Below, in pieces: positions 1,051 to 29,859 of a DNA stretch of 64,000 nucleotides (within the stretch, counting starts at the first letter, position 1; each line of letters opens with the position of its first letter). The translations under genes and the position numbers were made by a program. Below the pieces are notes generated by a model. It worked only from the letters and a program-made list of their open reading frames with translations, ran no database searches and was not told the DNA's origin. Origin of the DNA: Candidatus Bathyarchaeum sp. (GTDB lineage: Archaea; Thermoproteota; Bathyarchaeia; Bathyarchaeales; Bathyarchaeaceae); contig JAOZIB010000026.1 in NCBI GenBank assembly GCA_026014565.1, positions 13,829 to 77,828 of the forward strand, in the 5' to 3' direction.

Positions 1051-1067
1051 TTGGAAGGAGTATCCAT
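1051..1067. promoter_or_regulatory. Operator-like 17-bp inverted repeat TTGGAAGGAGTATCCAT upstream of the hemA-cbiX-cbiC fusion
   Basis: It lies between a TATA-like CTTATATTTA (1038-1047) and the ATG at 1070. It has the same half-sites and spacing as the sites at 22385, 22658 and 29843 (TTGGA-N7-TCCA). Confidence 0.4.
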
Positions 1068-3430: not shown

Positions 3431-3447
3431 AATAAAAAGGGTTTGTT

Positions 3448-5183: not shown

Positions 5184-5205
5184 AAAAGAAGGGGAAGTTT
5201 GCAAC

Positions 5206-5805: not shown

Positions 5806-5815
5806 GTGAAAAAAA

Positions 5816-8392: not shown

Positions 8393-9114
8393 CCGCAGTC
8401 GGCATTGGTCCAGGTGCCCTTGAGCACATGACCCTTAAAGCCAAACAAGAAATTGAAAACGCCGATGTTATTGTAGGTTACAAAACGTACGTCAAACTAA
8501 TTGAGCAAATTATCAAACCCGAAACCGAAGTTTTCAGCGGCAACATGGGACAAGAAGTAGACAGAGCCCGAAAAGCCATCCAAAAAGCCCAAGAAAATAA
8601 ACAAGTAGCAGTTATCAGCAGTGGAGATTCAGGAGTTTACGGCATGGCAGGCGTAATTTTAGAAACTGCAGCCCATGAAAATGTAAATGTTCCAATAGAA
8701 GTTGTCCCAGGAGTAACTGCTGCTACTGCGGCCGCGGCAACTTTAGGTGCACCCTTGGTTGGAGATTTCGCTGCCATTAGTTTAAGTGATATTTTGACGC
8801 CATGGGAACTAATAGAAAAACGGTTGCGTGCGGCTGCTGAGGCAGACTTTGGGATTGTTTTGTATAATCCCCAAAGTATGGGACGCAAAAAGCCGTTGGC
8901 AGAGGCTCATAAAATTTTGTTGGAATACCGTGACCCCAAGACTAATGTTGGTATTGTAAAGAACGCAAAAAGGGCTGGAGAAGATGCTGTTATTACGACT
9001 CTAAAAGACATGATGAATTTTGAAATTGATATGTCGACCGTTTTGGTTATCGGAAACTCGAAAACTTACTTGATTGAAGATAAACTGGTTACGCCTAGAG
9101 GTTATAGTTTCTAA
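8290..9114 (+). CDS. cbiH: Cobalt-precorrin-3B (C17)-methyltransferase CbiH (start uncertain)
   Basis: RIAAVGIGPGALEHMTLKA..VIVGYKTYVKLI..VISSGDSGVYGMAG. The only canonical in-frame start is ATG 8290, 103 nt inside cbiG. The conserved part begins at about 8386. Confidence 0.82.
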   Translation: MRKSSVDSCGKKCKTVIEENQSKRRDRGSSRGRIAAVGIGPGALEHMTLKAKQEIENADVIVGYKTYVKLIEQIIKPETEVFSGNMGQEVDRARKAIQKAQENKQVAVISSGDSGVYGMAGVILETAAHENVNVPIEVVPGVTAATAAAATLGAPLVGDFAAISLSDILTPWELIEKRLRAAAEADFGIVLYNPQSMGRKKPLAEAHKILLEYRDPKTNVGIVKNAKRAGEDAVITTLKDMMNFEIDMSTVLVIGNSKTYLIEDKLVTPRGYSF

Positions 9115-9141: not shown

Positions 9142-9888
9142 TCATACGCTGGAGCGTTTTAGTGCAACCATAGACATTGTGAAGAAGAAAACTGCAAAGC
9201 ATACAAGCGCCACGATGTTAAGCCATGGAAAAGCTTGTCCTAAGCTTATTGCGCGTAATGATTCGCTGGCGTGGGACAGGGGTAAGAAGTATAGAACGAT
9301 TTTGAGTGCTTCTGGAATTTGGCTTAACGAGAAGAATGTTCCGCTAAGGAAAGTCATAGGTAACAGAACTAGGCTGCTTACGGTGCTCATGTCTTGGTGG
9401 GATTTTGCTAGGAACGACACTAGGACTCCAAAGAAGGAGAAAACAAAGCATGAAAGCACCAAAACTGCAATGAATACTAGATCAATGTGAAGGGTTGGCG
9501 AAAATAGAAAGCCCACTATTAGAAAAGCAACAGAAGTAAATAATCCTCGAACTACACCAATCAGGGCTTTTCCAATTATTATTGAATACACACTGACAGG
9601 AGACATTAAGCATTCATCAAACGAACGAAAGAATAATCTGTCTACGTTTAGTTTTTGTCCTGCGCCTCCAAAACTGACAGTCATTGAGGTTAATGCAATG
9701 ATACCGGGGATAACGAATTCAAGGTAACTGTAGCCGTCAAAGCTGATGCCTTGTCCTAATCCAAAACCAAAGGCTACAAGGTACAAAATTGGATTCACTA
9801 AGCTGGTGGAAAGGGTTCGGACCCATCGCCGTCTTAAGACGCGCAGGTCTACCCATAATACGGAATATATGTCGGTTAACATTCTCAT
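9142..9888 (-). CDS. ABC-2 type transporter permease
   Basis: Six hydrophobic segments and an N-terminal YSVLWVDLRVLRRRWVRTL ABC-2 signature region. It lies directly after its ATPase. Confidence 0.75.
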   Translation of the reverse strand: MRMLTDIYSVLWVDLRVLRRRWVRTLSTSLVNPILYLVAFGFGLGQGISFDGYSYLEFVIPGIIALTSMTVSFGGAGQKLNVDRLFFRSFDECLMSPVSVYSIIIGKALIGVVRGLFTSVAFLIVGFLFSPTLHIDLVFIAVLVLSCFVFSFFGVLVSFLAKSHQDMSTVSSLVLLPMTFLSGTFFSLSQIPEALKIVLYFLPLSHASESLRAISLGQAFPWLNIVALVCFAVFFFTMSMVALKRSSV

Positions 9889-9890
9889 TT

Positions 9891-10754
9891 TTAGTCCTCA
9901 CTTACTTTTTGTCCAGTTAATTCAACAAACACATCTTCAAGGTTTGATTCGCGAATGATGATTGTTTTCATGTTATGTGGTAACATCTGAACATAGTTTT
10001 TTGCTGCCGTTTCATCAGGGAAATAGTTATACTGTGTCCCTAAATCTTCAGTTAAGGTTTCAACAGCAAATAACCCCAATTTTTTGCGAAGCTCCAGAGG
10101 TTCACCAACAGTTACTAGTTTTCCTTGATGAAGAACGCCTACACGGTTGCATAATGCTTCGGCTTCTTCTATGTAATGAGTTGTGAGAAAGATTGAGGTG
10201 CCATCACTGTTCAGTTTGCGTATGAGTTCCCAGATTTTGCGGCGGGTTTGGGCATCTAGTCCTACTGTGGGTTCATCCAAGAAGAGTATTTTTGGTTGGT
10301 GAATCAATGCCCGAACAATCATTGCTCGTTTTTGCAGTCCACCGGAAAGGGTCATAACCATGCGGTCAGCGTATTCTGTTAATCCAACAAATTCAAGAAG
10401 CTCTTGGATACGTCGTTTGCGTTCGGCTCCACCAATATGATGCAACCGAGCGTGCAGTTCCATGTTTTCTATTACGTTCAGGTCGCGGTCCAGACTCATG
10501 TGCTGCTGGGCAATTCCGAATTCTTGTTTTACTTTATTAGATTCAGTTACAACATCAAAGCCGTTTACAAGTGCTCTTCCAGAAGTTGGTTTAGTCAAAG
10601 TGGTTAGCATGCGAATAGTGGTAGTTTTACCTGCACCATTTGGACCTAAGAAACCAAAGACTTCCCCTGAATGAATGTTCAGGTTCAACTCTTTAACTGC
10701 TTTTACTTTGCCATAATTTTTGGTCAAGTTTTCTGTTACGATTATGTCACTCAA
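9891..10754 (-). CDS. ABC transporter ATP-binding protein (DrrA/CcmA-like exporter type)
   Basis: Walker A GPNGAGKTT, signature LSGGLQKR, Walker B ILFLDEPTVGLD. Confidence 0.9.
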   Translation of the reverse strand: MSDIIVTENLTKNYGKVKAVKELNLNIHSGEVFGFLGPNGAGKTTTIRMLTTLTKPTSGRALVNGFDVVTESNKVKQEFGIAQQHMSLDRDLNVIENMELHARLHHIGGAERKRRIQELLEFVGLTEYADRMVMTLSGGLQKRAMIVRALIHQPKILFLDEPTVGLDAQTRRKIWELIRKLNSDGTSIFLTTHYIEEAEALCNRVGVLHQGKLVTVGEPLELRKKLGLFAVETLTEDLGTQYNYFPDETAAKNYVQMLPHNMKTIIIRESNLEDVFVELTGQKVSED

Positions 10755-10757
10755 TAA

Positions 10758-11534
10758 TCAACTACTCCAGTTTTCATTCATTTCATGATTTTTCATGCTC
10801 GCAACCATTGCTTCATGTTTTTTTATGGTTTCAGCAACTGTAACCTTGGTCGTAGCACCAATCAATTCTCCTAACTTTGTGTGTCCACCGGTGTGCCGAA
10901 CTTTCTTGTCAGGGTCGGTTCCAGAAATAACAATCATATTATCGGTTCCTGTTCCTGTTGCTAGCTTTTCAGGAGAAAGAGAGCTCCGAGCATCCATGTC
11001 TTGAAGGGCGGCTGTTTTCGCTTCAGTTCCAGTTATTATGGTTCGGGCAAGGGCACCATCAGTTAAAGTAACGTTAGTTAACAAAATAATGTTAATAGTT
11101 CCAAGAGTGGTCAAATACTTTCCATCATTTTCAATCCAGTTTGCTGTGTCTACTCCAGACCGTAAAGCATTGCCAACGCCACCAGTGGCTAAACAACAAA
11201 CTTTTCGGTCTTTAAACGATTTTTCACATACTGCCAAATTGTTCATGTTGGCTCCTGTGCTCAAAAAAGTAAGATCATCAGCAGGTAGATTCAAAAGGCT
11301 GGGAAATTTTTCTGCAAAAGAAGCGTAGTCTTTCATTGTATTCATTGACAAGTCCAAAGGCTGGTAATGGTTGGCTACATATCGCACTTCACAGTAGCCA
11401 TCCAAAGTGGAAAGAACACGACGTTTCTTGTTAAAAGAAACAAGTAAAGTGTTTACGTCAACGTTTTGATAATTATGGTAAAGAACTTGTGCCCGCACAT
11501 TTTCCAGTTTTAGTTTAATTTCTTTTTTCTCCAT
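10758..11534 (-). CDS. cbiZ: Adenosylcobinamide amidohydrolase CbiZ
   Basis: RRVLSTLDGY.., CCLATGGVGNALRSG and TINIILLTN..GTEAKTAALQDMD match my recollection of the CbiZ family. It sits beside a BtuFCD-like importer, as in archaeal cobinamide salvage loci. Confidence 0.72.
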   Translation of the reverse strand: MEKKEIKLKLENVRAQVLYHNYQNVDVNTLLVSFNKKRRVLSTLDGYCEVRYVANHYQPLDLSMNTMKDYASFAEKFPSLLNLPADDLTFLSTGANMNNLAVCEKSFKDRKVCCLATGGVGNALRSGVDTANWIENDGKYLTTLGTINIILLTNVTLTDGALARTIITGTEAKTAALQDMDARSSLSPEKLATGTGTDNMIVISGTDPDKKVRHTGGHTKLGELIGATTKVTVAETIKKHEAMVASMKNHEMNENWSS

Positions 11535-11551
11535 TTTTTAACCCTTCAGTT

Positions 11552-14500
11552 TTATTTTGACTCTCCTGCTTTTTCAATTAATCCTTCAATATCCAAATAA
11601 ATACGTTGTAACTGATTTTTCATTTCGTCAGCGGCATTCCACAATCCACGATCAATAGCTTCCAAAAACCGTTCAACCATATTTTGAAGCGCATATGGGT
11701 TTACTTCCTTAAACCATTCTTGCATTTTTTTGTCCAGAACATATTTTTCGGCTAGTTTTTCGTACATCCAATCTTCAACAACTTCAACTGTAGCATCCCA
11801 ACCAAATACATAATCAACCGCTCGGGACAGGTCCCCAGCGCCTTGGTATCCGTGACGTTTTTCGCTTTCAATCCATTTGGGGTTTAGAAGACGGGACCGG
11901 AAAATGAATTTTGTTTCTTCATCCGTGTTTCTAAGTTTCACACGGTCAGGGTCAGAGCTGTCCCCACAATAGGAACGTGGAGCTTCACCTTTGAAAGTTT
12001 TAATTGAACAAATCAGGCCCCCATGGATGTCGTACCAGTCGTCTGCGTCTAGTATATCGTATTCGCGGGAGTCCTGATTTTTTACAGTAACATCAATTTT
12101 ACTTAACCGTGACTTGAACTGGTTAGGCACAGATTTGCCATAATTTTTCCGACCATATGCATAACAGCCCCATGTAACGTAGATGTCGCTGAGATCTTTT
12201 TGGGTTTTCCAGTTTTTGGTGTCTACTGCTTCGCTGACTCCAGAGCCGTGAGCCCCGGGTCGGTCGCCAAAGATGCGGTAGCAGGCTTCTTCTTTTGCTT
12301 GTTCTAAACTGATGCCGTGACTTACCCGTTCTTCGATTTCTGCTAAAACATGTTTAGCCAAAAAGTTTTGTTCAGGAGATTCCTTAAGAGTTGCAACCAA
12401 TTCCACTGCTTCGTCAATAAGATTGACAATGTTTGGAAAGGCATCTCGGAACATTCCGCTGATTCGAAGGGTTACATCAACACGGGGACGTTTCAAGGTT
12501 TCAAGAGGAATAACTTCAAGTCCTGTGACTCTGCCGCTGGTTTCTTCCCATACGGGTTTAATGCCCATAAGATAAAGGACTTCAGCTACGTCGTCTCCTT
12601 GAGTTTTCATTGTATCAGTTGCCCAGATTATAATAGCTACATTCTCAGGATATTTTCCTTCTTCCTTCAAATATCGCTTCAACAAAGCATCACCTAAATC
12701 AACTCCAACTTTCCAAGCACCTGAAGAAGGTACTGCACGAGGGTCAACAGAATAAAAATTTCTGCCCGTAGGCAAAATGTCTGCCATACCCCGTGTTGGA
12801 GAACCAGAAGGACCAGATGGGACATACTTGCCGTTGCAGGAACATAAAACGTATTTTAACTCATCAGTAGTAGCAAACAAAGCAGGAACAAGAAAAGATG
12901 AAAGATATGCCAAACATTTTTCGACCTTAGAGTCAGGTTTACCAAGAACACTTTTAGTTAAAACTGGAATGACCATTGTATCGAAGTCAAAAACATGAAA
13001 TTGTTTCACAAGCTCTAAACAAAGATTGTGTACTTCATTTATCACATCACCGTTTGTCTTGCCGTCAGCAAGTAGTTTTCCCCGGTTTGCTAAAAGGTAT
13101 TCATAGTTGTAGCCTTTCATTTCAGCAATTGCTTGCCGCAAAGAAGCAACAGAACCATTACTTAATCGGGTTAACGCAACTAAGAACTCTTCAAGACGAG
13201 AACCTTCAGGAGGTTCACCCAGAATGTGCAAACCATCACGAATCTGAGCATCAGAAAGTTCATTCAAATAATCATGCAAAGTTTCCACAAAAGAGTCAAA
13301 GGCCTCAAAAACAGTTTTTTCATCAATTTTCAAATCATGATCTAGATTGGATTCACAGACTTTGCCCCAAATCAGTTTTTGCATGGTCGGCAGTTTTGCA
13401 GTGTCAGAAGTTTTTGCGTGGTAGTAATCTTTCAATTGAATTTCCAATTTTGCTAGTTCTTCGTACGAGTCAGCGTTGTGCATAACTGGAACTAAATGCT
13501 CAATGATACAACAGTAGCTACGTCGTTTTGCTTGTGTGCCTTCTCCGGGATTGTTTATGATGTAAGGGTAAACATTGGGTAAATCTGAAATTGCTACATC
13601 GGGAAAACAAGAAGCAGAAAGCCCGATAGATTTTCCAGGCAACCATTCTAGAGTGCCATGTTTACCAATATGCAGTATAACATTAGCTTTGAAAACGTCG
13701 CGAATCCAACGGTAATACGCATAATACTGGTGAGAAATAGGAAGGTCTGGACTATGGTAAACACTTGCTGGGTCGTCAAAATAGCCTCTACGGGGTTGGA
13801 GTCCAATGAACACGTTTTTGTTAATTAGCCCAGAAATAAGTAACTGATCATCATAAGTGAAAACAGACCCAGGGGGTTCGTTCCACTGGTTTTCCATTTT
13901 TTCTTGAACATCCATTGGAAGTTCACTAAACCAACTGCCATAGGTTGGAAGAAAAACTTTGGCAGCAGCTCGTTCTGCGAGTTCTTGTGCGCTTGCCCAG
14001 CGGTTGTCGTTTGTTAACCCGTTTATTATTTTGTCGATGATTTCTTTGCCATTTTCAGGTAGGTTTAGTTTGATTCCTGCTTTTTGTAACTCTCGTAAAA
14101 TGTTCCAAACAGAAACCGGTGAATCAAGCCCAAAGGCATGACCAATAAGGTCGTTTCTGGGGGGGTAGTTATGAAAGATTATTGCTACTTTTTTTTCTTC
14201 ATTTGGTATGAATTTCAGTTTAGCCCAGTTTATGGTTAAGCGAACTAGTTTGTCCACTCGTTCAGGAATAGGTTCATACTTGATTATTTTTGTTCCTGTT
14301 GTTGGGTCAACTTCCGAATATTTCATTGCAGCCACAGGCACAGTAATCAGCATACCGTCGAATTCAGGCATTGCAATGTTTGAGGCAATTTCGACCGTGT
14401 GTAGACCTTGTATACTTTCTTGCCAAGCCTTAAGTCGATTTACTGTTAGTACTGCCTTGATAACTGGCACGTCCAGTTTTGTTAATAGTTTGGTTGATTC

Positions 14501-15292
14501 ATCAGAACACGACAAAGTGGACAACGAAAAAGACAAAACACTAATTACAGCGTCAACTAATGCTTTGCCGTTTTTCATGAAATAATTTTCAATAATCCAT
14601 TCTACGCTTTTCACCCCTAAATTGGGGTCTTTGGCGCCACTGAAAAAAACTGCCAGAACATTTACTCCTTTGCTTTCAAGTTTTTCGATGATAAAATCCA
14701 CATAATCTAAATCATTTGCTTGCCATGAAACTTGATGAAACCATAATCCAATTGTTGGTTTACCGTTAACTATTTTTTTTGAAATATATTCGTCAATGGA
14801 AGGCAGTTCAGAAAAATCAGGATGATAAATTCCTTGCCAGGCCAAAGGTGTTGGTGGGTCAAATTCATAGGTTTTTCCTGTAAAACGGTTGGATATGTAC
14901 AAAAATAGGTTTTCAAAATTCTTTTTTCCGCCATAATTGAGGTATTTTAGGATGTTTTGATAATCATTATTTTCAACTGTAGAGGCATTAATGAACTCAG
15001 GGGACGGATTAAGGGAGGAAGATGCAACAAAAACCGGGACGTTTGCTTTTTCAAGGGCAGACAAAAGGTTTTGGTAACAAGGAAGTTGTCCCATCATATG
15101 GACAATAACAAAATGAGAAGCAGTAGCAAACTGAAGTAAATGATCAACATTCTCAAAGTCTTTAGAGTCAGCACCAGTTTGCAGAAAAAATTCCAGAATT
15201 TTTCCGTTTTTTTCATTTATGGAGTTGGCAGCAGCAACAAAAGGTACCGCATCAGTAGGAATGTTTGATATGAAGGCAACCTTTGTTGTCAC
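11552..15292 (-). CDS. cobN: CobN/Mg-chelatase H family large subunit (class I chelatase), paralogue 1
   Basis: 1246 aa. Conserved blocks: IIFHNYPPRND, YHSPDL..HQYYAYYRWIR, HIGKHGTLEWLPGK, GEGTQAKRRSY and NQDSREYDILD. Confidence 0.9.
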   Translation of the reverse strand: MTTKVAFISNIPTDAVPFVAAANSINEKNGKILEFFLQTGADSKDFENVDHLLQFATASHFVIVHMMGQLPCYQNLLSALEKANVPVFVASSSLNPSPEFINASTVENNDYQNILKYLNYGGKKNFENLFLYISNRFTGKTYEFDPPTPLAWQGIYHPDFSELPSIDEYISKKIVNGKPTIGLWFHQVSWQANDLDYVDFIIEKLESKGVNVLAVFFSGAKDPNLGVKSVEWIIENYFMKNGKALVDAVISVLSFSLSTLSCSDESTKLLTKLDVPVIKAVLTVNRLKAWQESIQGLHTVEIASNIAMPEFDGMLITVPVAAMKYSEVDPTTGTKIIKYEPIPERVDKLVRLTINWAKLKFIPNEEKKVAIIFHNYPPRNDLIGHAFGLDSPVSVWNILRELQKAGIKLNLPENGKEIIDKIINGLTNDNRWASAQELAERAAAKVFLPTYGSWFSELPMDVQEKMENQWNEPPGSVFTYDDQLLISGLINKNVFIGLQPRRGYFDDPASVYHSPDLPISHQYYAYYRWIRDVFKANVILHIGKHGTLEWLPGKSIGLSASCFPDVAISDLPNVYPYIINNPGEGTQAKRRSYCCIIEHLVPVMHNADSYEELAKLEIQLKDYYHAKTSDTAKLPTMQKLIWGKVCESNLDHDLKIDEKTVFEAFDSFVETLHDYLNELSDAQIRDGLHILGEPPEGSRLEEFLVALTRLSNGSVASLRQAIAEMKGYNYEYLLANRGKLLADGKTNGDVINEVHNLCLELVKQFHVFDFDTMVIPVLTKSVLGKPDSKVEKCLAYLSSFLVPALFATTDELKYVLCSCNGKYVPSGPSGSPTRGMADILPTGRNFYSVDPRAVPSSGAWKVGVDLGDALLKRYLKEEGKYPENVAIIIWATDTMKTQGDDVAEVLYLMGIKPVWEETSGRVTGLEVIPLETLKRPRVDVTLRISGMFRDAFPNIVNLIDEAVELVATLKESPEQNFLAKHVLAEIEERVSHGISLEQAKEEACYRIFGDRPGAHGSGVSEAVDTKNWKTQKDLSDIYVTWGCYAYGRKNYGKSVPNQFKSRLSKIDVTVKNQDSREYDILDADDWYDIHGGLICSIKTFKGEAPRSYCGDSSDPDRVKLRNTDEETKFIFRSRLLNPKWIESEKRHGYQGAGDLSRAVDYVFGWDATVEVVEDWMYEKLAEKYVLDKKMQEWFKEVNPYALQNMVERFLEAIDRGLWNAADEMKNQLQRIYLDIEGLIEKAGESK

Positions 15293-15314
15293 TAAATTCA
15301 GCTCAAAGGTGAAA

Positions 15315-16139
15315 TCAGAGTCTAGTCATAATTTTTGGGGGTAAAATGTTTCCCAAATTTTTGGTTTCTGATTCTATAGGTGTGACTTGGGGCAGGCCAA
15401 CAATTGATTTTGTTACTTTTGATTTAATTCCATATACTGCTTCGATGTTTTCTTCAGTCATGACGGTTTCTGGAGTGCCAACAGAGTAGATTTGACCTTC
15501 TTTTATTAGAACTAATCGGTCAGAGAATCTGCATGCAAGGTTTAGGTCATGTATGGAAATGACTACGGAGCAGTGTTTGCGTTGAGCTAAAGTTCTAAGG
15601 ATGCACAAGATTTCTAGTTGATGGCGAATGTCTAGTGAACTAGTGGGTTCATCCAAAAGTATGATTTCGGGTTGTTGGGCTAATGCACGGGCGATGATAA
15701 CTTTTTGTTGTTCTCCACCGCTTAGTTCGTTAAAGTAACGCATGCCCAAATGAGCGATACCAAGGTAATCTAAGATTTTAGCAACGATTTCTTTGTCGTT
15801 TCTGCCTAGACTCCACTGAACATAGGGCCTTCTTCCCATTAGAACAACATCAAAAACGGTGAAAGGAAAAACGTTCTTAGAACTCTGGGGAACATAGCCC
15901 ATCACTTTAGCTAGTTCTTTGAGTCCGATGTCTGAAATGTCTTTGTTGTCAATTAGTATGGTGTTTTTTTCAGTTTTTAGAATTCGGTTCATGCATTTTA
16001 AGAGGGTACTTTTTCCAGAACCGTTTGGTCCAACAATACCCAATACTTCACCGAATTCTACTTTTAGGTTAAAGTCGTTTAGAACAGGATTTCCAGTGTA
16101 ACTAAACGCCAAATTGTTTATTTCTAAATTCAACCCCAA
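15315..16139 (-). CDS. ABC importer ATPase, FepC/BtuD (iron-siderophore/cobalamin) type
   Basis: Walker A GPNGSGKST, signature LSGGEQQKV, Walker B ILLDEPTSSLD. It overlaps the upstream permease gene. Confidence 0.9.
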   Translation of the reverse strand: MGLNLEINNLAFSYTGNPVLNDFNLKVEFGEVLGIVGPNGSGKSTLLKCMNRILKTEKNTILIDNKDISDIGLKELAKVMGYVPQSSKNVFPFTVFDVVLMGRRPYVQWSLGRNDKEIVAKILDYLGIAHLGMRYFNELSGGEQQKVIIARALAQQPEIILLDEPTSSLDIRHQLEILCILRTLAQRKHCSVVISIHDLNLACRFSDRLVLIKEGQIYSVGTPETVMTEENIEAVYGIKSKVTKSIVGLPQVTPIESETKNLGNILPPKIMTRL

Positions 16140-17206
16140 CTTTGCCTCCTTCTACTTAACAAGATGTAAATGAAGAATGGAACACCCAACAGTGAAGTTA
16201 TTATTCCTACAGGAAACTCCACAGGGGGCATAACAGTTCGTGCTAAGGTGTCTGATGCTAAAAGCAAACAAGAACCAATAACTGTGCAGCACGGTAAAAG
16301 GAATCTGTGGTCACTGCCGATTATCATCCGCGCGAGGTGAGGAGAAATCAAGCAGATGAACCCAATGACCCCAGTAAATGAGATAATAGTTGATGTTGCG
16401 AGAGTTCCTAAAATCATGGAAACCAGCAAAACTCGTTTAGAGTTAACTCCAAGACTGGTTGCTACTTCTTCGCCTAGGCTCATGACGTTTAGGTCCCAAG
16501 ATTGTTTCATCATCAAAAGAATAGAAAACAACACAATAGGAAGAGTAATGAAAACACTATCCCACGAGGCTTTTTGGAAAGAGCCCAAAAGCCAAAAAAC
16601 TACAGCTCGAACAGCTTCGTGTTCGGGAGCCAAGAACTGAATTAATGATAGTAAAGCAGAAAACAAAAATCCGACTGCTACACCGGCCAAAATTACTGTT
16701 TCGGAAGATATTCCACGTATACGGGCAATGCCTAGTACTAACATCATTGCAAGAAAACTGAAAATAAAAGCGTTAATGACAGTCACATAATTGGCGTATT
16801 GTGCCAAAATACCTACACCAAATACTATGGATAAAGCTGCGCCAAAACCTGCAGCTGAAGAAATTCCTAAGATGTAAGAGGAAACCAAAGGGTTGCGGAG
16901 CACGCCTTGCATGACTGCACCAGAAGCAGAAAGCCCTGCACCAGCAATGATTGCCAAGGCAATTCGGGGTAGTCGTAAGTCCATAATAATTATCTGGGTT
17001 ATTGTTGTACACGGGTCAAAATCAAAAGAGGGAAAAATCTTATACATAATAACATTGAAGGCTTCATTAAATCCTGGTGAGCCAGCACCAAGACTAACTG
17101 CAATAACTGAAACTACAACTAAAGTTACTAAAATAGAAAGAATAGCAAGAACCTTGCGGCTCTTGCCTTGAGAATAAAGAGACTCAAGCTCTGCAGCGGA
17201 ACTCAT
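16130..17206 (-). CDS. FecCD/BtuC-family ABC importer permease
   Basis: About 10 TM segments. RLPRIALAIIAGAGLSASGAVMQGVLRNPL and GVIGFICLISPHLAR are FecCD-family hallmarks. Confidence 0.9.
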   Translation of the reverse strand: MSSAAELESLYSQGKSRKVLAILSILVTLVVVSVIAVSLGAGSPGFNEAFNVIMYKIFPSFDFDPCTTITQIIIMDLRLPRIALAIIAGAGLSASGAVMQGVLRNPLVSSYILGISSAAGFGAALSIVFGVGILAQYANYVTVINAFIFSFLAMMLVLGIARIRGISSETVILAGVAVGFLFSALLSLIQFLAPEHEAVRAVVFWLLGSFQKASWDSVFITLPIVLFSILLMMKQSWDLNVMSLGEEVATSLGVNSKRVLLVSMILGTLATSTIISFTGVIGFICLISPHLARMIIGSDHRFLLPCCTVIGSCLLLASDTLARTVMPPVEFPVGIITSLLGVPFFIYILLSRRRQSWG

Positions 17207-20190
17207 GGGTAGAAATAAACTCCTGGTATGTCAGCTCCAAAGAATTTTTCATTAATTTCAGTATTCACGGCAGCGGGATCTATGTCTTCAAACAGGTCAG
17301 GTTGGCACCATTTTGCCCAGCATAGGTATCCAACTATACAGCGTATTCCACCACGGGCAGCCCAATCATAGATGTAGACTTTACCATTTACAACAGCAGA
17401 CACTTCACTTAATTCTGGTCGTTCCATTATCTGTGTTTGCATGTCGATGAAGTCGGCTTCTTCATGATTCACACTTTGAATTGCACGAAGAATAATGTCT
17501 GGGTCCTGTTCGACTACAAACTCGGCACTTAAGACTGGCGCATATTCTGTTTGGTTTTCTGCAATGTTTATTCCACCTGCTTGGTCCAAACCAGGAGTAA
17601 CAAAGGTGTTGTAAGGTGCATACCATTCAAGAAGCACTTTTGGTCGGTCTTCTACGGTGAGGGTTGCAACACGTTCTTTGACAAGATTGTTGTAATATTG
17701 GACGTATTCGATGTATTCATCAGCAGCATCGGGGTCACCTACGATTTTAGCAAGTTTTTGTAGTAGTTTACATGAAAAATCTACTGAAGTTTCATTAGAG
17801 TGAGCTGTTGGTTCGGGGTCCGATGTGTCGCTGATAAAGATGGGAATTCCTGCAGATACAATTTGGTCATACAGTTCTGCATTGTAAGGCAACATTGAAT
17901 CAGCAAAAAGCAAGTCGGGTTCTGCTTCTAGTACCAATTCAACATTTGGCAAGTACGAATTATCGCCAACAACGGGTATGTCAAGAACAGACGGTGGCAA
18001 AGTTGAAGCTTCATCTCGGCCAACGATTCTGTCTTCATATCCTAGTGCGGAAAGCATCTCTGTTAAACCAGAGTTGATGCTGACAATGCGCTCCACAGGC
18101 AGATTAATGGTTAATTCATTCTCGTTTCCATCAGTAACGGTAACAATTTCAGGGTAGGCGTAGACTTGTTGAAGTTCTTCATCAAAGAACAACTGATTCA
18201 TTTCTTCATGAATAGCAGCAGGGTCAATGTCTGCAAACAGGCTAGGATTGAACCATTTTGCCCAATACATCAAACCGATTGGGTATCGAAGTCCCTGGAA
18301 GACTACGGAAGCATAAATGTAAACGCGGTCATCTGAAACAGCAGTTGTTCCACTTAACCCTGGGCGAGAGAGTAGCTCTTCTCGTAGAATTTGCATTCCA
18401 GTAAAGTTGCTACCAGAACTTGCCATTCTGATGATTACTTCAGGGTCTTGCTCCGTTACGTATTCAGGACTTAATGTTGGTGAAGAATCATCAGAGTGCC
18501 CAGAAGCAATGTTTATTCCTCCAGCTTTAAGGAGGATCTCATGACTGGAACTGCCTTCAGCAAAACTTAGCCAGTCTTCGCTCCATTCAATGAAAACTTT
18601 GGGTTTTTCACTTTCGTCAAGAGATTCAGTGCGGTCAAGTACCAAGTTTTCATATTCTTCCATAAAATCAATTATGGTATCTGCATTTTCAGAGTTTTCT
18701 AAAATGTTACCTAGATAGGTGACCATTTCAGGCAATCGAGTAAAGTTGCTGGAAGATTCCATGATGACGGGTATACCAGCGCTTCGGATGGTAGCTAGTT
18801 CTTCTGTTTTGTATGAGAGCATTGTATCGGCAACTAACAGGTCAGGCTCTAATTCGAGAATCATTTCAACATTGGGAGTGTATGAACTCCCACCTACGAC
18901 TGTTGCATCCACAATCGATTCAGGGAAAAGAGAGTTTTCGTCTCGTCCAATTATGCGGTCGTCTCCACCGAGGGCACATAAAAGTTCGGTTAATCCAGGG
19001 TTCATACAAACTATTGATTCAACTGGAAGAGCTATCTCAACTTCGTTTCCTTTACCATCTACAACAGTAATGGTTTCGGGTTCAGGTTCATTCGGCTCGC
19101 TTGGCTCTGAAGTTTCATCAGGGTAAACGAATACGCCTGACACGCTGGTTCCAAAGAATTTGTGAACATATTCTTCATGCACTGCAACAGGGTCGATGTC
19201 ATCAAACAGGTCAGGATGGAACCACTTAGCCAGGTACAGCAAGCCGATTGGTCGACGCCCAACTAGGGCAGTGTTTTTGATGATGTAGACTTCTTCATTT
19301 TGCACGGCATCAGTGTCAACCAGTGCCTCGCGGGTTAGTATCCCTTCTCTTAGGGCTTGGAAGTCTTCTAGTTCTTCGCCATCGTAAAAAGTCAGCATAC
19401 GAACAATCATGTCTGGATTTTCTTCAACTACAAACTCGGCACTTACATCCATAGATGATACGTTCTGGTCACCTGCAATGTTTATTGCTCCAGCAGTGTA
19501 AATCATCTCGGTATAAGAGCCAGTTGCACCACTGCTGTACCAATCCTTGTACCATTCAAAGTATACGGTGGGTTTTTCTTCATCAGTTAGAGAGGACACA
19601 CGCTCAACGATAAGGTCCTCATAATGGGACTCGAAGTCAAGAAACTCATCAGCAGCTTCTTGAGCATCCAAGATCACTGCAAGGTTTTGAATATAATCCT
19701 CACGACGTGGATAAGTTGAACTTTCTTCAAGAACTGCAACACCTGCAGCTTCAAGGGCTGCCCGATTCTCGTCAGAGAGCCGTTGACTGGCGATTACCAA
19801 GTCGGGTTCTAGTTCCAAAATTAATTCTAGACTTGCACTAGAGTCGGTGTCTCCAACAACGGGCAAATCTTTAACATATTGGGGCAAAATTGATTCTTCA
19901 TCAGTAGATAGTTTTACGCGTCCTACAATTTTGTCTTCACAACCTAAGGCGGAAATGAATTCTGCACCAATCATTGCAACGATCCTGTTTACGGGCTTTG
20001 TTATTGTTACTTCAGTGTCAGTAACATCAACCACAGTAACTGTAACTGGGGTTTCAGGCTCATTTGGTTCATCTGATACTTCTGGAGTAAAAAAGACGCT
20101 GTAAGCTCCATAAGAGCCTCCAATAATCACGACCAGAAGGATTACCCCTAAAATTATTTTTTTATTTGTTGTGTTTACAAGTTTACTCAT
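17203..20190 (-). CDS. Membrane-anchored protein with three tandem BtuF/FepB-like (Peripla_BP_2-type) substrate-binding domains
   Basis: N-terminal TM anchor (IILGVILLVVIIGG). There are three units of about 310 aa (aa 48-357, 372-680, 681-995). Each starts ..TV(V/T)D..E(V/L)(T/E)I..PV(N/E)RIV....G..E.L.ALG.(E/D)D(K/R)I(V/I)GR and ends ..W(A/L)KWF(H/N/C)P(D/S)LF.DIDP.A(V/I). An acidic Pro/Glu linker (SEPSEPNEPEPE) joins units 1 and 2. Confidence 0.85.
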   Translation of the reverse strand: MSKLVNTTNKKIILGVILLVVIIGGSYGAYSVFFTPEVSDEPNEPETPVTVTVVDVTDTEVTITKPVNRIVAMIGAEFISALGCEDKIVGRVKLSTDEESILPQYVKDLPVVGDTDSSASLELILELEPDLVIASQRLSDENRAALEAAGVAVLEESSTYPRREDYIQNLAVILDAQEAADEFLDFESHYEDLIVERVSSLTDEEKPTVYFEWYKDWYSSGATGSYTEMIYTAGAINIAGDQNVSSMDVSAEFVVEENPDMIVRMLTFYDGEELEDFQALREGILTREALVDTDAVQNEEVYIIKNTALVGRRPIGLLYLAKWFHPDLFDDIDPVAVHEEYVHKFFGTSVSGVFVYPDETSEPSEPNEPEPETITVVDGKGNEVEIALPVESIVCMNPGLTELLCALGGDDRIIGRDENSLFPESIVDATVVGGSSYTPNVEMILELEPDLLVADTMLSYKTEELATIRSAGIPVIMESSSNFTRLPEMVTYLGNILENSENADTIIDFMEEYENLVLDRTESLDESEKPKVFIEWSEDWLSFAEGSSSHEILLKAGGINIASGHSDDSSPTLSPEYVTEQDPEVIIRMASSGSNFTGMQILREELLSRPGLSGTTAVSDDRVYIYASVVFQGLRYPIGLMYWAKWFNPSLFADIDPAAIHEEMNQLFFDEELQQVYAYPEIVTVTDGNENELTINLPVERIVSINSGLTEMLSALGYEDRIVGRDEASTLPPSVLDIPVVGDNSYLPNVELVLEAEPDLLFADSMLPYNAELYDQIVSAGIPIFISDTSDPEPTAHSNETSVDFSCKLLQKLAKIVGDPDAADEYIEYVQYYNNLVKERVATLTVEDRPKVLLEWYAPYNTFVTPGLDQAGGINIAENQTEYAPVLSAEFVVEQDPDIILRAIQSVNHEEADFIDMQTQIMERPELSEVSAVVNGKVYIYDWAARGGIRCIVGYLCWAKWCQPDLFEDIDPAAVNTEINEKFFGADIPGVYFYP

Positions 20191-22241
20191 GCATTTTCAC
20201 ATCCAAAATTTGTTTTCATCATTGCATAATTTTGAGGCAAATGGCTACGAACCGCAGAAGCAAGAGGCGCTGCGCTCAAGTCTTCTAAACGTAGATATTT
20301 TCCACCCATCTCTGAACAGATTTGGTTTACCAAACCAAACGAAATGAAATCCCGTTCAGTATCAATGGCGATGGATTTGATTCCAGCCGATTTAATGGCA
20401 CGGGCTATGGTTTTTGCTTCTTCGATTGGATCACCATCATACATGTTGACGTTTGCCCGACCATCAGAAACCAAAGTTAAAAGAGGAATGGCTTCTTTGT
20501 CCCGTCGCATACACTCACGGATTGTATCCAATCCAGACTTTAACCCATGAGCAAGAGGAGTTCGTCCACCAGTAGGAAGTTTTGCCAAGCATTTTTGGGC
20601 TAACTCCACGCTGCTAGTTGGAGGCAAAATTACCTCTGCCTTGTTTTTCCGAAAAGCAATCATTCCAACCCGGTCACGACGCTGATACGCATCAATTAGA
20701 AGGGATAAAATGGCACCCTTAGTTGCAGTCATGCGCTCTTGGGCAGCCATTGAGCCACTGGCATCAACAACAAACATGATTAAATTGCCCATTTTCGTTT
20801 CTCGAACTTTCTGGCGCAGGTCAGATTTTTCGATAAGTAACGCGTTTTGGCCGTTAGATTCTTCTCGTCTTCTGTTTTGAAAAGGAGCTGCAGCCCGCAA
20901 AGTAGCATCAAAAGCAAGGTCAGTAACTTTTCCTTTAGGAACAGCACTAGAAACATAACGTCCAGTTTTGGAGTTAGTTCTAGTTTTTGACCTTCGTCCA
21001 GAGCCAGTGCGTTGCATCTGGTCCAAAACTGGATTTTCTAAAGGTTTAACTTTTTCTGGAGAATCAGCCTCAAAAACTTGTTCATGTTGGGGATCTGAGT
21101 TTTCCTGGGGGTTATCTGATGAAGAATCATCAGGAGGGGAATTACTCTCAGAAGGAGATTGCTGTTCCTGATTTTGTTTCCATTTATCGATGTTGTCTTG
21201 AATTTGTTGTTGCTCTTGCTTGGGTTCTTCAAAAGGCTGACGACGAAGACGATGAGGAAGCGCCAATTCTGCAGCTTCACGAACATCTTCTTCAGTTACT
21301 TCAGTTCGTCCTCTAAACGCTGCGATGGTGCATGCAGTCTTATAAATCGTAATATCTGCACGGTGCCCATCAACACCAAAGTCCACACAGATTTGAGTGA
21401 TTAAATCAAGCATTTCATCACTTAACTTAACTTTAGGCAAAAGGTCGGTTGCATCAACTATCTTTTTACGCATTTTTTCTTGTTCTTCATGACGACTGTC
21501 AACAAACCCTTGAGGGTCAGATTCAAAGGCAACACGTCTTCGAACAATTTCTGCTCGGGCTTCTCGGTATGGGATGCCTTTAACTTCAACTGTTAATCCA
21601 AAACGGTCCAAGAGTTGAGGACGAAGATCCCCTTCTTCAGGGTTCATGGTGCCGACTAGTACAAAATTGGATGGGTGACTGAATGAAACCCCTTCCCGTT
21701 CAACAAAGTTTATGCTCATTGCAGCAGCATCTAGCAAAACGTCAACTAGGTGGTCGTCTAGCAGGTTTACTTCATCAATATAGAGGATGTTTCGGTTTGC
21801 TTCTGCTAAAAGTCCGGGCTCGAAATGTTTTTCACCTGTTTTGATTGCTTTTTCTAGGTCGATTGTACCTACTAAGCGGTCTTCGGTTGCACCAATAGGC
21901 AAATCAACTACAGAAACAGACTGTTTTGCAACAGAGATTTTTTTTCCTTTTTCTTGTTTGGTGCTACAGGTATCGCACATTTCTTTTTGGTTGATTGGGT
22001 CACAGTGGAAAGGACAATCAGCAACTACATCTACTTCGGGCAGAAGATGAGCAAGAGCGCGTACTGCCATTGATTTTCCAGTTCCTTTTTCTCCTCTTAG
22101 TAGAACTCCCCCGATTTTTGGGTTTATGACATTAAGGATTAGAGCCATTTTCATGGTGTCTTGTCCAACGATAGCAGAGAATGGGTAAACTGTTTTTGTT
22201 CTCCAGCGCATTAGTATGCTTCCTTTTTGTTTTCTGGACAT
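20187..22241 (-). CDS. ChlI/ChlD-type chelatase ATPase: intact AAA+ module + acidic/Gln-Pro linker + vWA (MIDAS) domain in one polypeptide
   Basis: PFSAIVGQD.MK, Walker A GEKGTGKS, Walker B ILYIDEVNLLDDHLVD and NPEEGDLRPQLLDRFGL are ChlI/BchI-like. A long acidic linker follows. The vWA domain has VVDASGSM and LVSDGRANV. There is a 4-Cys insertion CPFHC-x12-CDTC. ATGA overlap with the downstream binding-protein gene. Confidence 0.85.
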   Translation of the reverse strand: MSRKQKGSILMRWRTKTVYPFSAIVGQDTMKMALILNVINPKIGGVLLRGEKGTGKSMAVRALAHLLPEVDVVADCPFHCDPINQKEMCDTCSTKQEKGKKISVAKQSVSVVDLPIGATEDRLVGTIDLEKAIKTGEKHFEPGLLAEANRNILYIDEVNLLDDHLVDVLLDAAAMSINFVEREGVSFSHPSNFVLVGTMNPEEGDLRPQLLDRFGLTVEVKGIPYREARAEIVRRRVAFESDPQGFVDSRHEEQEKMRKKIVDATDLLPKVKLSDEMLDLITQICVDFGVDGHRADITIYKTACTIAAFRGRTEVTEEDVREAAELALPHRLRRQPFEEPKQEQQQIQDNIDKWKQNQEQQSPSESNSPPDDSSSDNPQENSDPQHEQVFEADSPEKVKPLENPVLDQMQRTGSGRRSKTRTNSKTGRYVSSAVPKGKVTDLAFDATLRAAAPFQNRRREESNGQNALLIEKSDLRQKVRETKMGNLIMFVVDASGSMAAQERMTATKGAILSLLIDAYQRRDRVGMIAFRKNKAEVILPPTSSVELAQKCLAKLPTGGRTPLAHGLKSGLDTIRECMRRDKEAIPLLTLVSDGRANVNMYDGDPIEEAKTIARAIKSAGIKSIAIDTERDFISFGLVNQICSEMGGKYLRLEDLSAAPLASAVRSHLPQNYAMMKTNFGCENA

Positions 22242-22384
22242 TGAATTGAAAGGTAATCATCAACAAAATATCGAGCAGAGTTGGGGTTTGCGCGCATTAA
22301 ACAAAAATGCAGGGGCGTCGGCGCTATTCTGTTGGATTGTATTTGGTGCCTTGATTCTTTGTGTGTCAATACGAAACCATCCAG

Positions 22385-22401
22385 TTGGATGGGTTATCCA
22401 A
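22385..22401. promoter_or_regulatory. Operator-like 17-bp palindrome TTGGATGGGTTATCCAA upstream of the chlID-led operon
   Basis: Perfect TTGGAT/ATCCAA inverted repeat with a 5-nt spacer. It lies just promoter-distal of the start codon (22241) and downstream, in gene orientation, of a TTTTATAAA TATA-like box at about 22410-22418. Confidence 0.5.
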
Positions 22402-22431
22402 TAAATAGTTTATAAAACTTTGTTTAACTAA

Positions 22432-22657: not shown

Positions 22658-22674
22658 TTGGATGGTTAATCCAA
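22658..22674. promoter_or_regulatory. Operator-like 17-bp palindrome TTGGATGGTTAATCCAA upstream of the wHTH regulator gene
   Basis: Perfect TTGGAT/ATCCAA inverted repeat with a 5-nt spacer, 66 nt upstream of the ATG at 22740. It is flanked by A/T-rich TATA-like boxes (AAATTTATTT at about 22630 and CTTATATTTT at about 22681). Confidence 0.5.
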
Positions 22675-22739: not shown

Positions 22740-23555
22740 ATGAATCTTTTAAGAAACAAAGGCGAATTAACAAAATTTCAGATTCTTTTCGAAATAAAAA
22801 GGAAACAGCCCCACATTAAACAAGAAGAAATAAGCAAGACACTTGGAATAACTGTTCAAGCAGTCTCAAAACATTTTAAAAAATTGATCCATGAAGGGTT
22901 GATTGAAGCCGGACCCGAAAAAGCAAACTACAGGTTAACACCCAAAGCCATCGAAAAACTACAGGAAGGAGCCAAAAGCCTAGAAAGATACGCCCTTAAA
23001 ATCGAGAATGGATTAAAAATTGAACGTGTTTGCCCTGCCATTGCAACCCTGCCCACAAAAACAGGGGACCACGTGGGAATCATAATGAAGGAGGGCGTAG
23101 TGTATGCCGTAGCTTCTGATCATCCCGAGGCTAAAGCTTTTGGAATTGTAACAACGAATGCGGAGCCAGGAGAAGATTTGGGCTTTGAGTACCTAGAAGG
23201 CAAAATCAAAATTGAACGCGGGCGAATCTTAATAATTAAACTCCCCAGCATAAAAGAAGGCGGTTCAAGGTCTGTTGATTTGGTCAAAGTTAAGCAACTT
23301 TACGAAGAGTTTAAGCCAGACAGAATAGGGGTTATGGGTTCTGTTGGAAGGGCAGTTTTGAATAAATTAAATCTAAAAGCAGACATTGAATTTGGTATAA
23401 ACCGAGCTGCCGCCATAGCTGCTTTGCGGGGGTTGAATGTTTTTGTTTTTGTTGTTGGCCGGATGGCAAACCGGATGATAGAAGAAATTGATGAAATAAA
23501 CATCAAACGCACAATGAACATAAAATACGAGATGAAAGACGGGAGAAAAACATGA
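22740..23555 (+). CDS. Archaeal winged-helix transcriptional regulator with a C-terminal domain of about 190 aa of unknown function
   Basis: The N-terminus LTKFQILFEIKRKQPHIKQEEISKTLGITVQAVSKHFKKLIHEGLIE is an ArsR/MarR-like wHTH. The C-terminal domain was not recognised. It may belong to the archaeal 'predicted regulator' family of about 260 aa, but that is recollection only. Confidence 0.6.
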   Translation: MNLLRNKGELTKFQILFEIKRKQPHIKQEEISKTLGITVQAVSKHFKKLIHEGLIEAGPEKANYRLTPKAIEKLQEGAKSLERYALKIENGLKIERVCPAIATLPTKTGDHVGIIMKEGVVYAVASDHPEAKAFGIVTTNAEPGEDLGFEYLEGKIKIERGRILIIKLPSIKEGGSRSVDLVKVKQLYEEFKPDRIGVMGSVGRAVLNKLNLKADIEFGINRAAAIAALRGLNVFVFVVGRMANRMIEEIDEINIKRTMNIKYEMKDGRKT

Positions 23556-27162: not shown

Positions 27163-27232
27163 CATGACACATTTTTGAGGTAAAGGAACTTAAACAGCCA
27201 AAGGGTTTACGAGTCATAGAAAGTGGTTACAG

Positions 27233-29842: not shown

Positions 29843-29859
29843 TTGGATGGATAGTCCAA
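29843..29859. promoter_or_regulatory. Operator-like 17-bp near-palindrome TTGGATGGATAGTCCAA in the cbiB / cobN-2 divergent intergenic region
   Basis: Same 8-nt left arm (TTGGATGG) and same spacing as the sites at 22385 and 22658, with one mismatch in the right arm. On the cbiB (minus) side it directly abuts a TTTATA box. Confidence 0.45.

Follow-up and report, generated by a model that had tools for sequence, protein, structure and literature searches.

The closest described counterpart of the locus analysed here is operon-2 of Dehalobacter restrictus, a riboswitch-controlled cluster that encodes FepBCD/BtuCD-type importers, the amidohydrolase CbiZ, CobN and Mg-chelatase subunits and is syntenic with a cluster in Acetobacterium woodii (Rupakula et al. 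2015, PMC4285132). Upon corrinoid starvation this operon was induced 346-fold at the RNA level and 46-fold at the protein level, and the truncated cbiH of the organism makes ring contraction impossible (PMC4285132). In haloarchaea, cobN and chlID (HVO_B0051/B0050) occur in hosts that insert cobalt early, which has been described as an open issue with salvage as a speculative answer (Pfeiffer and Dyall-Smith 2021, PMC8305020), and the same paradox of a cobalt-early pathway together with CobN was noted for Chlorobium (PMC8620254). The replacement of CobS/CobT by ChlI/ChlD is credited by later papers to Rodionov 2003. In archaea, a BtuFCD importer together with CbiZ is an experimentally grounded salvage pair (Woodson and Escalante-Semerena, as cited in PMC8305020 and PMC3541065), and BtuFCD and CbiZ have been noted in Bathyarchaeia (PMC11697101). 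It is a recognised question why strict anaerobes and archaea with a cobalt-early pathway have retained a 'late' cobaltochelatase that is costly and consumes ATP, and the role of archaeal CobN has been called unclear (PMC12583661, PMC8305020). Here we describe an eight-gene unit from Candidatus Bathyarchaeum sp., located in a stretch of 64,000 nucleotides (nt) that is referred to as the window, in which a CobN protein, CobN1, is encoded together with ChlID, a predicted tetrapyrrole importer, CbiZ and an ATP-binding cassette type 2 (ABC-2) transporter.

Systems with a different task also have to be considered. HmuS/BtuS of Bacteroidota is a periplasmic heme dechelatase of approx. 1460 residues with transmembrane regions at both ends, a Met-rich insertion and Met/His heme ligands (PMC12583661, PMC6460266). 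CbtJKL of Sinorhizobium meliloti, a riboswitch-controlled BtuF-like/FecCD system, was first thought to be a B12 importer and then shown to import Co(II) (PMC7689651).

The cluster in the window is an archaeal example of an already described, functionally uncharacterised cluster type; genes for CobN, ChlI/D, CbiZ and a FecCD-type importer are clustered in the same orientation, as in the Rodionov 2003/Dehalobacter operon-2 type. An earlier note on this DNA had regarded a system of such composition as not known, which does not hold in view of the published Dehalobacter operon-2 (PMC4285132), haloarchaeal (PMC8305020) and Chlorobium (PMC8620254) cases with their speculation on salvage. The present analysis adds the wide extent of the synteny, the constancy of the ABC-2 pair, the apparent fusion origin of the binding protein, the predicted location and competence of CobN1, and a candidate regulator with its operator. 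Support is good for the functions of the individual genes and for their co-regulation; the weak step is what the chelatase acts on.

The eight-gene unit and its products

Positions 9142-22241 of the minus strand carry eight tightly packed co-directional open reading frames (ORFs), all at the coordinates given in the earlier note, whose family assignments were upheld by Pfam and NCBIfam profiles. The first gene encodes ChlID (20187..22211; AAA+/lid/vWA), followed by a triple binding protein (17203..20190; three Peripla_BP_2 domains, 995 residues), a FecCD/BtuC-type permease (16130..17206; PF01032, 301 bits; 10 transmembrane segments) and a BtuD/HmuV-like importer ATPase (15315..16139; NCBIfam profile matches below cutoff). 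Then come CobN1 (11552..15292; PF02514, 1353 bits; TIGR02257, 1066 bits at a cutoff of 822), the adenosylcobinamide amidohydrolase CbiZ (10758..11534; PF01955, 165 bits), a DrrA-like ABC-2 type ATPase (9891..10754; TIGR01188, 313 bits) and an ABC-2 type permease with 6 transmembrane segments, presumably an exporter (9142..9888; PF01061). The ATGA overlaps at 20187-20190 and 17203-17206 were confirmed, as was the set of eight minus-strand genes; of the other junctions, all described before as gaps of at most 22 nt, the one between the FecCD and BtuD genes is a 10-nt overlap, and the rest are gaps of 22, 17, 3 and 2 nt. The ChlID ORF is open to 22241, which had been taken as its start. The assignment as ChlID was correct, but the ATG at 22211 is most likely the true start, because the deposited gene call begins there (674 residues, MRWR...) and the sequence ATG-CGN-TGG-CG is the conserved ChlID start among relatives.

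CobN1 is predicted to serve as large subunit in a ChlID-partnered class I chelatase. PF02514 spans positions 1-1089 of 1090, and the BchH profile TIGR02025 was also passed narrowly (851 bits, cutoff 829). The best PDB matches were the CobN structures 7c6o (821 bits) and 9uk9 (705 bits), followed by ChlH (533 bits) and HmuS (383 bits). In an ungapped alignment the putative metal/active-site residues H545, E584 and D1084 correspond to H554, E593 and D1100 of 9uk9, and in alignment A1 all three are invariant or at least 90% conserved. To judge from these residues and scores, CobN1 is apparently capable of catalysis, and it belongs with CobN rather than with HmuS or ChlH. The protein has 1246 residues. 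Neither a signal peptide nor a transmembrane segment was found in CobN1, ChlID, CbiZ or CobN2, a paralog encoded in the window, and the chelatase is therefore predicted to be cytoplasmic; the description of the system as 'membrane-proximal' is contradicted for these proteins.

The predicted partner ChlID is a single polypeptide in which an AAA+ motor, an acidic/Pro/Gln-rich linker and a vWA adaptor follow one another, and it matched the 'putative cobaltochelatase' profile TIGR02442 with 835 bits (cutoff 779). Walker A (GEKGTGKS), Walker B (ILYIDEVN) and MIDAS (DASGS) motifs are intact, and a Cys-rich insert is located at residues 76-92. We also considered a small chelatase subunit, produced from a second ChlI gene or by programmed frameshifting as at the sites described for some chlD genes (PMC9227772). 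No slippery or frameshift site was found at the AAA+/linker boundary and no second ChlI-like sequence in the 64-kb window, though the rest of the genome may contain one; in close relatives, too, the fused ChlID gene is the only form.

The genes for a Peripla_BP_2 protein, an ABC ATPase and a FecCD permease stand together, as expected of a BtuFCD importer, which is a type II ABC importer. The best NCBIfam match of the permease was archaeal BtuC PRK09535 (235 bits, below the cutoff of 461), the ATPase matched the heme ABC ATPase NF010068 (253 bits, cutoff 261) and the corrinoid ATPase PRK09536 (235 bits, cutoff 537), and the binding protein matched BtuF PRK03379 with 66 bits (cutoff 234). Thus no equivalog-level NCBIfam match to characterised corrinoid BtuC, BtuD or BtuF was obtained, all scores being below cutoff. 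The adjacency of CbiZ is only indirect support for corrinoids as candidate cargo. Solved binding proteins did not help in assigning a ligand, as heme, B12, siderophore and Ni binders matched all three domains equally weakly (40-76 bits).

The binding protein starts with an N-terminal membrane anchor, after which three BtuF-like domains follow with Pro/Glu/Thr linkers between them, and it is predicted to be extracytoplasmic and membrane-anchored. Two or three separate single-domain substrate-binding protein (SBP) genes stand in relatives where the window has the fusion, the first and the third domain each match a different SBP gene of these relatives, and triple and double forms recur in Bathyarchaeia. 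Judging from these matches, the triple protein appears to have arisen by fusion. A second triple-domain BtuF-like family (approx. 981 residues, 41% identical to that of the window; locus L012, 1-1418, and P0134, P0136 and P0138) was observed in the same genomes, its gene being directly upstream of a CobN of a second archaeal clade, clade A.

The match of CbiZ to PF01955 covers positions 2-188 of 191, nearly the full domain. The ABC-2 ATPase gene is kept at the 3' end of the operon among relatives, and the ABC-2 permease gene is linked to CobN, ChlI and ChlD also in metagenome-assembled genomes (MAGs) of Deltaproteobacteria without btuFCD.

Conservation, CobN phylogeny and the candidate regulon

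A scan of genome contigs gave 8 loci and a scan of metagenomes 80 further ones on contigs without taxonomy; as such contigs are cut, the metagenome gene counts are lower bounds. The nearest homologs of CobN1 and of the binding protein were found in Bathyarchaeia, including 'Ca. Bathyarchaeum'. A core of ChlID-(BtuF)-FecCD-BtuD-(CobN)-(CbiZ)-ABC2-ABC2 is shared by Bathyarchaeia (L002, L006, L007, L009, L012-L014), Verstraetearchaeota (L011) and Dehalococcoidia (L010). Where CobN was at least 55% identical to CobN1 (n=19), ChlI/D, FecCD and BtuF were each present in 16 loci, CbiZ in 14, often directly beside CobN, the ABC-2 permease in 11 and any uptake or salvage gene in 18. At 37-44% identity (n=61) the corresponding numbers were 37 for ChlI/D, 22 for FecCD, 9 for BtuF, 12 for CbiZ, 4 for the ABC-2 permease and 33 for any uptake or salvage gene. 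The gene set named by the earlier note, cobN-chlID-btuFCD-cbiZ, is thus conserved, more loosely in many bacteria. Because the identical gene set recurred in 16 of the 19 closer loci, the arrangement is beyond chance; that the eight genes form one operon-like unit, as the note had proposed, is supported by this linkage of chelatase, importer and CbiZ across lineages and by the overlapping or closely spaced genes.

The surroundings of CobN differ among the loci. CbiZ, an enzyme of salvage only, lies at most 300 nt from CobN in 9 loci of diverse lineages, and an SBP gene is always directly upstream of clade-A CobN. In the Deltaproteobacteria MAG locus L003 a TonB-dependent receptor gene stands between CobN and ChlD; as only its plug domain gave matches, it could not be placed as a BtuB, heme or siderophore type. 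The close relative L014 has cbiMNQO beside the module and under the same operator. The module of Dehalococcoidia L010 is flanked by cobA/cbiX-cbiC on one side and by sirC-hemA on the other and is preceded by one riboswitch, and CobN-CbiC adjacency was found in approx. 7 metagenome loci. The Haloferax string reads cobN-cbiC-cbiE, with cobN overlapping cbiC, a Peripla_BP_2 SBP gene following and cbtAB nearby; that of Ralstonia reads hoxN-cobN-chlID-cbiE-cbiXC-cbiD.

Some further observations concern these loci. Directly after clade-A CobN a gene for an isochorismatase-family hydrolase of the amidohydrolase type was seen (L011, 4870-5397; L012, 5341-5874), whose product might, speculatively, trim corrinoid side-chain amides. 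In L003/L004 (1-15400) CobN is preceded by two nitrogenase-like (BchB/NifE-like) proteins, a Gate-domain membrane protein and a radical SAM/SPASM enzyme, and followed by the TonB-dependent receptor, ChlD, ChlI, the ABC-2 pair and CbiK; possibly, these genes form a tetrapyrrole-processing cluster of another kind.

A neighbour-joining tree of 35 CobN sequences (200 bootstraps) included three references: the truly aerobic CobN of Pseudosulfitobacter (cobW-cobN-cobG; 26% identical to CobN1) and the ChlID-partnered proteins of Haloferax (plasmid pHV3) and Ralstonia (both 38-39%). CobN1 and CobN2 fell into archaeal clade B. The archaeal clade, the clade joining it with Dehalococcoidia-type sequences and the haloarchaeal clade each had 100% bootstrap support, and the Ralstonia-type clade 94%. 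Clustering with CobNs of de novo late insertion had been named as an outcome that would refute the earlier interpretation, and CobN1 stood apart from the cobW/cobG-linked CobN (26% identity, long branch). CobN2 (30180..33872, plus strand), approx. 8 kb upstream of the operon, is a clade-B paralog with 59% identity to CobN1. It has no ChlID of its own, and its promoter combines a TATA box and a comparable upstream element with no more than half an operator site.

Upstream of ChlID we found the palindrome TTGGATGGGTTATCCAA at 22385..22401, which is a candidate operator, 8 nt downstream of a TATA-like box (22409-22417) on the transcribed strand; upstream of this box lies a second palindrome, TCAAC-TTTA-GTTAA (22424-22437). 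Another operator copy is present at 22658..22674 beside the start of the regulator gene described below, one with a single mismatch at 29843..29859 between cbiB and cobN2, where the layout is that of the relatives' cobD-cbiB promoters, and a weak operator-like site at 1051..1067 before a cluster of cbi genes for the early-cobalt pathway. The motif TTGGAT-N5-ATCCAA occurs twice in the divergent promoter region and once with a mismatch before cbiB, where 0.39 occurrences are expected per window. Across loci the consensus is TTGGAT-AAnCC-ATCCAA. Relatives carry the operator directly upstream of ChlID and also before BtuF-CobN units, the regulator gene, cobD-cbiB and the cbiMNQO of L014, and the order of the ChlID promoter is conserved as TTAAC-TTTA-GTTAA palindrome, TATA box, operator and start codon. 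One predicted promoter, its operator directly after the TATA box, drives all eight genes of the window's operon, which are translationally coupled.

A scan with a position weight matrix returned 32 operator matches compared with a mean of 2.6 in shuffled sequence and none in bacterial loci. The operator was borne by L002, L006, L007, L009, L011-L014, L024 and L095-L097, which belong to Bathyarchaeia, Verstraetearchaeota and Nitrososphaerales. All three loci that had been left out of motif building had it in the expected promoters (3/3). As a clade-wide feature the operator did not hold, since the matrix threshold was reached in 1 of 11 new loci with CobN of at least 55% identity. By inspection, degenerate variants were seen in some of these loci and none in bacterial ones, so that the motif is restricted to archaeal lineages.

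The candidate regulator is a winged helix-turn-helix (wHTH) protein with a DUF7839 region, encoded divergently from the operon (22740..23555, plus strand). The protein is unusually conserved; its homologs are 64-84% identical, form more than 120 protein clusters, including Nitrososphaerales, and are always encoded beside cbi, cbiB, cbiMNQO or ChlID genes. In the three held-out loci the gene adjoins cbiMNQO or ends a hemA-cbiXC-...-cbiH operon beside cobD-cbiB and ChlID. An AlphaFold model (predicted local distance difference test score 82) gave PDB matches for the wHTH domain only; the beta-rich middle and alpha/beta C-terminal domains had no structural relatives in the PDB, and structure and sequence searches were thus uninformative about the ligand. 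Co-transcribed with the regulator is a gene for a PH0730-like wHTH and DUF4443 protein (23552..24280, plus strand), which is kept in L012 and L013 and absent from L095-L097.

A riboswitch or structured leader upstream of ChlID was considered and rejected, as Rfam, at gathering thresholds and at E <= 1, found nothing in the window, and the approx. 150-nt leader shared with L012-L014 had neither a significant fold (z = 0.20) nor covariation. This leader (22212-22384, minus strand) is A-rich and partly conserved in L012-L014 and lies between the operator and the start of ChlID; gene-calling programs put ORFs of 52-81 residues into it. Bacterial versions of the module are preceded by cobalamin riboswitches (RF00174), and in L010 a riboswitch heads the whole cobA...ChlID...CobN...ABC-2 string. 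With a shared operator in archaea and riboswitches in bacteria, the module therefore appears to belong to a B12/cobalt regulon in both domains, and the operator and the DUF7839 protein are candidate elements of the archaeal one. They are a lead on B12/cobalt sensing in archaea, which generally lack B12 riboswitches.

Possible roles of the chelatase

The cbi cluster of the window (approx. 1070..9114, plus strand) is convergent with the operon and contains a complete anaerobic set, namely a 786-residue HemA-CbiX-CbiC fusion, CbiD, CbiT, CbiG and four tetrapyrrole methylases (CbiE-like, CbiH-like and two more). Because the host has this early-cobalt route of its own, with CbiX fused to HemA and CbiC, and with CbiD and CbiG, CobN is not obviously needed for de novo synthesis. 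In the fusion (1070-3430, plus strand) the early chelatase is joined to HemA (glutamyl-tRNA reductase) and to the late methylmutase. Fusions of CbiX with CbiC were also seen in the loci L096 and L097, in Dehalococcoidia L010 and, as a 'hypothetical protein' (L099, 17435-19039), in Ralstonia, which for that reason had to be dropped as a case with ChlID-type CobN as sole chelatase. The earlier suggestion that the chelatase probably acts on an imported tetrapyrrole and not in de novo synthesis was strengthened by the host's early-cobalt route and by the separation of CobN1 from the aerobic CobN, and weakened by ChlID-type CobNs in biosynthetic clusters and by the possibility of a Co(II) importer.

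We tentatively favour the explanation that the locus forms that part of a B12/cobalt-limitation regulon which serves uptake, salvage and chelation, and that CobN1-ChlID would insert cobalt into imported cobalt-free corrinoids; it is plausible but falls short of being probable. Scarcity of the cofactor would end the repression exerted by the DUF7839 regulator. The membrane-anchored triple binding protein would take several kinds of corrinoid and deliver them to the single BtuCD-type permease and ATPase. In the cytoplasm CbiZ would remove the aminopropanol or nucleotide arm, leaving a cobyric-acid-type core for CbiB (28696..29664, minus strand; assigned to the cbiB family), which uses cobyric acid from CbiZ, and for nucleotide-loop assembly. 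CobN1, driven by ChlID at the expense of ATP, would insert Co2+ into those salvaged hydrogenobyrinic- or hydrogenobyric-acid-type corrinoids that lack cobalt and that would be neither made nor used by the host's Co-dependent CbiX/CbiD/CbiG route. Cobalt would enter by a separate transporter such as the cbiMNQO of L014, and the ABC-2 pair would export by-products or unusable tetrapyrroles. We favour this explanation because of the tight CobN-CbiZ and SBP-CobN pairs, the receptor gene between CobN and ChlD, the presence of CbiX in the host, and the case of Dehalobacter.

Several points weigh against import of cobalt-free corrinoids. We know of no documented cobalt-free corrinoid pool in anoxic sediments, and with cobalt-containing corrinoids there is nothing obvious for CobN to do. 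The ligands of all three binding domains appear unassignable from their matches. B12 regulons group biosynthesis and uptake genes anyway, and ChlID-type CobNs occur inside purely biosynthetic cbi clusters beside CbiX in Haloferax and Ralstonia. The tight embedding of CobN in the operon is variable, since the three closest relatives (L012-L014) keep CobN outside the importer operon, in a nearby unit. Because of the 100% bootstrap and approx. 60% identity, the gene order common to Bathyarchaeia and Dehalococcoidia is best taken as one transferred module, which is not independent evidence. Finally, the group of all importer- or CbiZ-linked CobNs had a bootstrap of only 58%, and a distinct 'salvage' CobN clade is only suggested by the tree. 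The wider proposal is more doubtful: that importer-linked ChlID-type CobNs form a dedicated salvage branch of B12 metabolism, in which anaerobes would import cobalt-free or mis-metallated corrinoids through a multi-receptor BtuCD-type importer, trim them by CbiZ, (re)metallate them and expel rejects by the ABC-2 pair, with the DUF7839 protein and operator of TACK archaea, both previously undescribed, in the role of the riboswitch.

CobN-ChlID could instead supplement the endogenous pathway as an additional cobalt chelatase of high affinity, driven by ATP and acting on sirohydrochlorin or on a late cobalt-free intermediate of a hybrid route. It would then be induced with the uptake and salvage genes only because of their common B12/cobalt-limitation regulon, and the importer and CbiZ would deal with ordinary cobamides and cobinamide independently of it. 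Such an endogenous role would explain the CobNs near CbiX-CbiC, CbiD and CbiG in Ralstonia and Haloferax, the CobN-CbiC adjacency in the approx. 7 metagenome loci, the position of the L010 module between cobA/cbiX-cbiC and sirC-hemA under a single riboswitch, the operators at cbiMNQO, cbiB-cobD and possibly hemA-cbiX-cbiC, and the location of CobN in L012-L014. However, the Co-dependent CbiD/CbiG route is established to make no hydrogenobyrinic acid a,c-diamide (PMC8305020), and a dedicated CbiX is already present by gene fusion. The SBP-CobN pairs, the tight CobN-CbiZ adjacency and the receptor between CobN and ChlD would be left unexplained, and Dehalobacter retains and induces the genes though it is unable to make the ring, so that we consider this role unlikely. 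Improbable, too, is that cobalt for the chelatase enters as Co(II) or in chelated form through the FecCD/BtuF importer or part of its binding domains, with CbiZ a passenger. CbtJKL is a precedent for a BtuF-like/FecCD system that imports Co(II) (PMC7689651), a HoxN Ni/Co permease is encoded next to cobN-chlID in Ralstonia, the Haloferax string has its Peripla_BP_2 SBP and cbtAB nearby, and the binding domains are as near to Ni and siderophore binders as to BtuF. Yet L014 has a dedicated cbiMNQO beside the module under the same operator, CbiZ depends on corrinoid import, for which no other linked importer is present, and BtuFCD with CbiZ is, as cited in PMC8305020 and PMC3541065, an experimentally grounded pair for corrinoid salvage in archaea. 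Up to six paralogous binding domains would also be easier to explain by the variety of cobamides than by that of cobalt species.

Removal or exchange of the metal of imported corrinoids by CobN-ChlID, a form of cobalt mining in which the ABC-2 pair would export the emptied macrocycle, has HmuS as a precedent for dechelation of an imported tetrapyrrole by a CobN-family protein (PMC12583661). The ABC-2 exporter as the most constant companion of CobN/ChlID, even without btuFCD, and a co-regulation with cbiMNQO that fits cobalt hunger would agree with it. On the other hand, CobN1 is far nearer to cobaltochelatases than to HmuS (821 versus 383 bits), lacks the HmuS membrane anchors, is approx. 200 residues shorter and leaves the heme-ligand region of HmuS unaligned; heme dechelation by HmuS is reported to depend on NADH. 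Cobalt in corrins is kinetically very inert. Taken together we regard this direction of the reaction as very unlikely. Least credible of all is the insertion of nickel or another metal, as suggested for methanogen CobN homologs and F430 (Thauer 2011, PMC3087415). The region that separates the two CobN loci does contain a NikR gene (25710-26180), but this gene has no operator and is not conserved in relatives, and the linked genes are all specific for corrinoids or cobalt (CbiZ, cbiB, cbiMNQO, the cbi cluster and the bacterial cobalamin riboswitches). Nickel insertion into F430 is now assigned to CfbA.

If chelation of imported corrinoids were true, it would imply an unrecognised cobalt-free corrinoid pool that is exchanged in anoxic communities, and the ABC-2 pair would be a candidate for the still unknown step of prokaryotic corrinoid export. 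The locus and its relatives provide a compact, conserved and co-regulated gene set with a defined promoter and operator for biochemical tests.

Between the two CobN loci (25710-27949, plus strand) NikR is followed by a metallo-beta-lactamase-fold protein and an NrdG-type radical SAM activase, all encoded without operator and not conserved in relatives; the radical SAM gene (27233-27949) had been considered as a tetrapyrrole enzyme, which was rejected when it proved to be NrdG. At 40108-52020 (minus strand) a complex-I/Mrp-like membrane module is encoded, with three antiporter-like subunits, a NuoH-like and a fused NuoC/D-like subunit, an FrhB/FpoF-like subunit with CBS domains and a tandem Usp protein.

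Comparison with described systems

As described, CbtJKL, which is under B12 control, resembles the importer of the window in its BtuF-like SBP, FecCD permease and ATPase; it differs in being unlinked to CobN or CbiZ and in its single-domain SBP. HmuS, too, belongs to the CobN family and has its gene in an operon for tetrapyrrole uptake. Its match to CobN1 was confined to the stretches 789-1235 and approx. 470-707, roughly the C-terminal 60%, and the N-terminal head/neck region with the heme site was unmatched. The analogy with HmuS, named as a precedent in the earlier note, is therefore weak, given 383 bits against 821 for solved CobN and the lack of membrane anchors in CobN1. With the aerobic CobNST of the Pseudomonas/Brucella type (preprint 10.64898/2026.07.21.739949) CobN1 shares the fold family of the large subunit, the His/Glu/Asp residues and the motor-adaptor-effector logic. 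Here, in contrast, the predicted partner is one ChlID of the Mg-chelatase AAA+ type and not CobS and CobT, CobW and CobG are absent, and the host inserts cobalt early.

The archaeal cobinamide salvage by BtuFCD and CbiZ follows the same logic of importer, CbiZ and CbiB and is present in the same lineage, whereas the system as described lacks both a chelatase and an ABC-2 exporter, and its binding protein consists of one domain. The haloarchaeal CobN is of the ChlID type as well, with 38% identity, and comes from a cobalt-early archaeon with CbiX and with a Peripla_BP_2 SBP in the gene string. In contrast to the window, that cobN is part of a biosynthetic cluster (cobN-cbiC-cbiE) without FecCD, CbiZ or ABC-2 genes adjacent, its ChlID is divergent, and it belongs to a separate clade.

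Operon-2 of Dehalobacter differs from the unit in the window in that it is bacterial, is controlled by a riboswitch, and has separate ChlI and ChlD and two CbiZ; the description in the operon-2 paper (PMC4285132) includes neither an ABC-2 pair nor a multi-domain binding protein, unlike the window. Metagenome loci of the operon-2 type with riboswitches were recovered in our scan, with CobN only approx. 40% identical to that of the window. The two systems are alike in their content of importer, CbiZ, CobN and chelatase genes, which is repressed by B12 in Dehalobacter, and in the cobalt-early cbi genes of the host.

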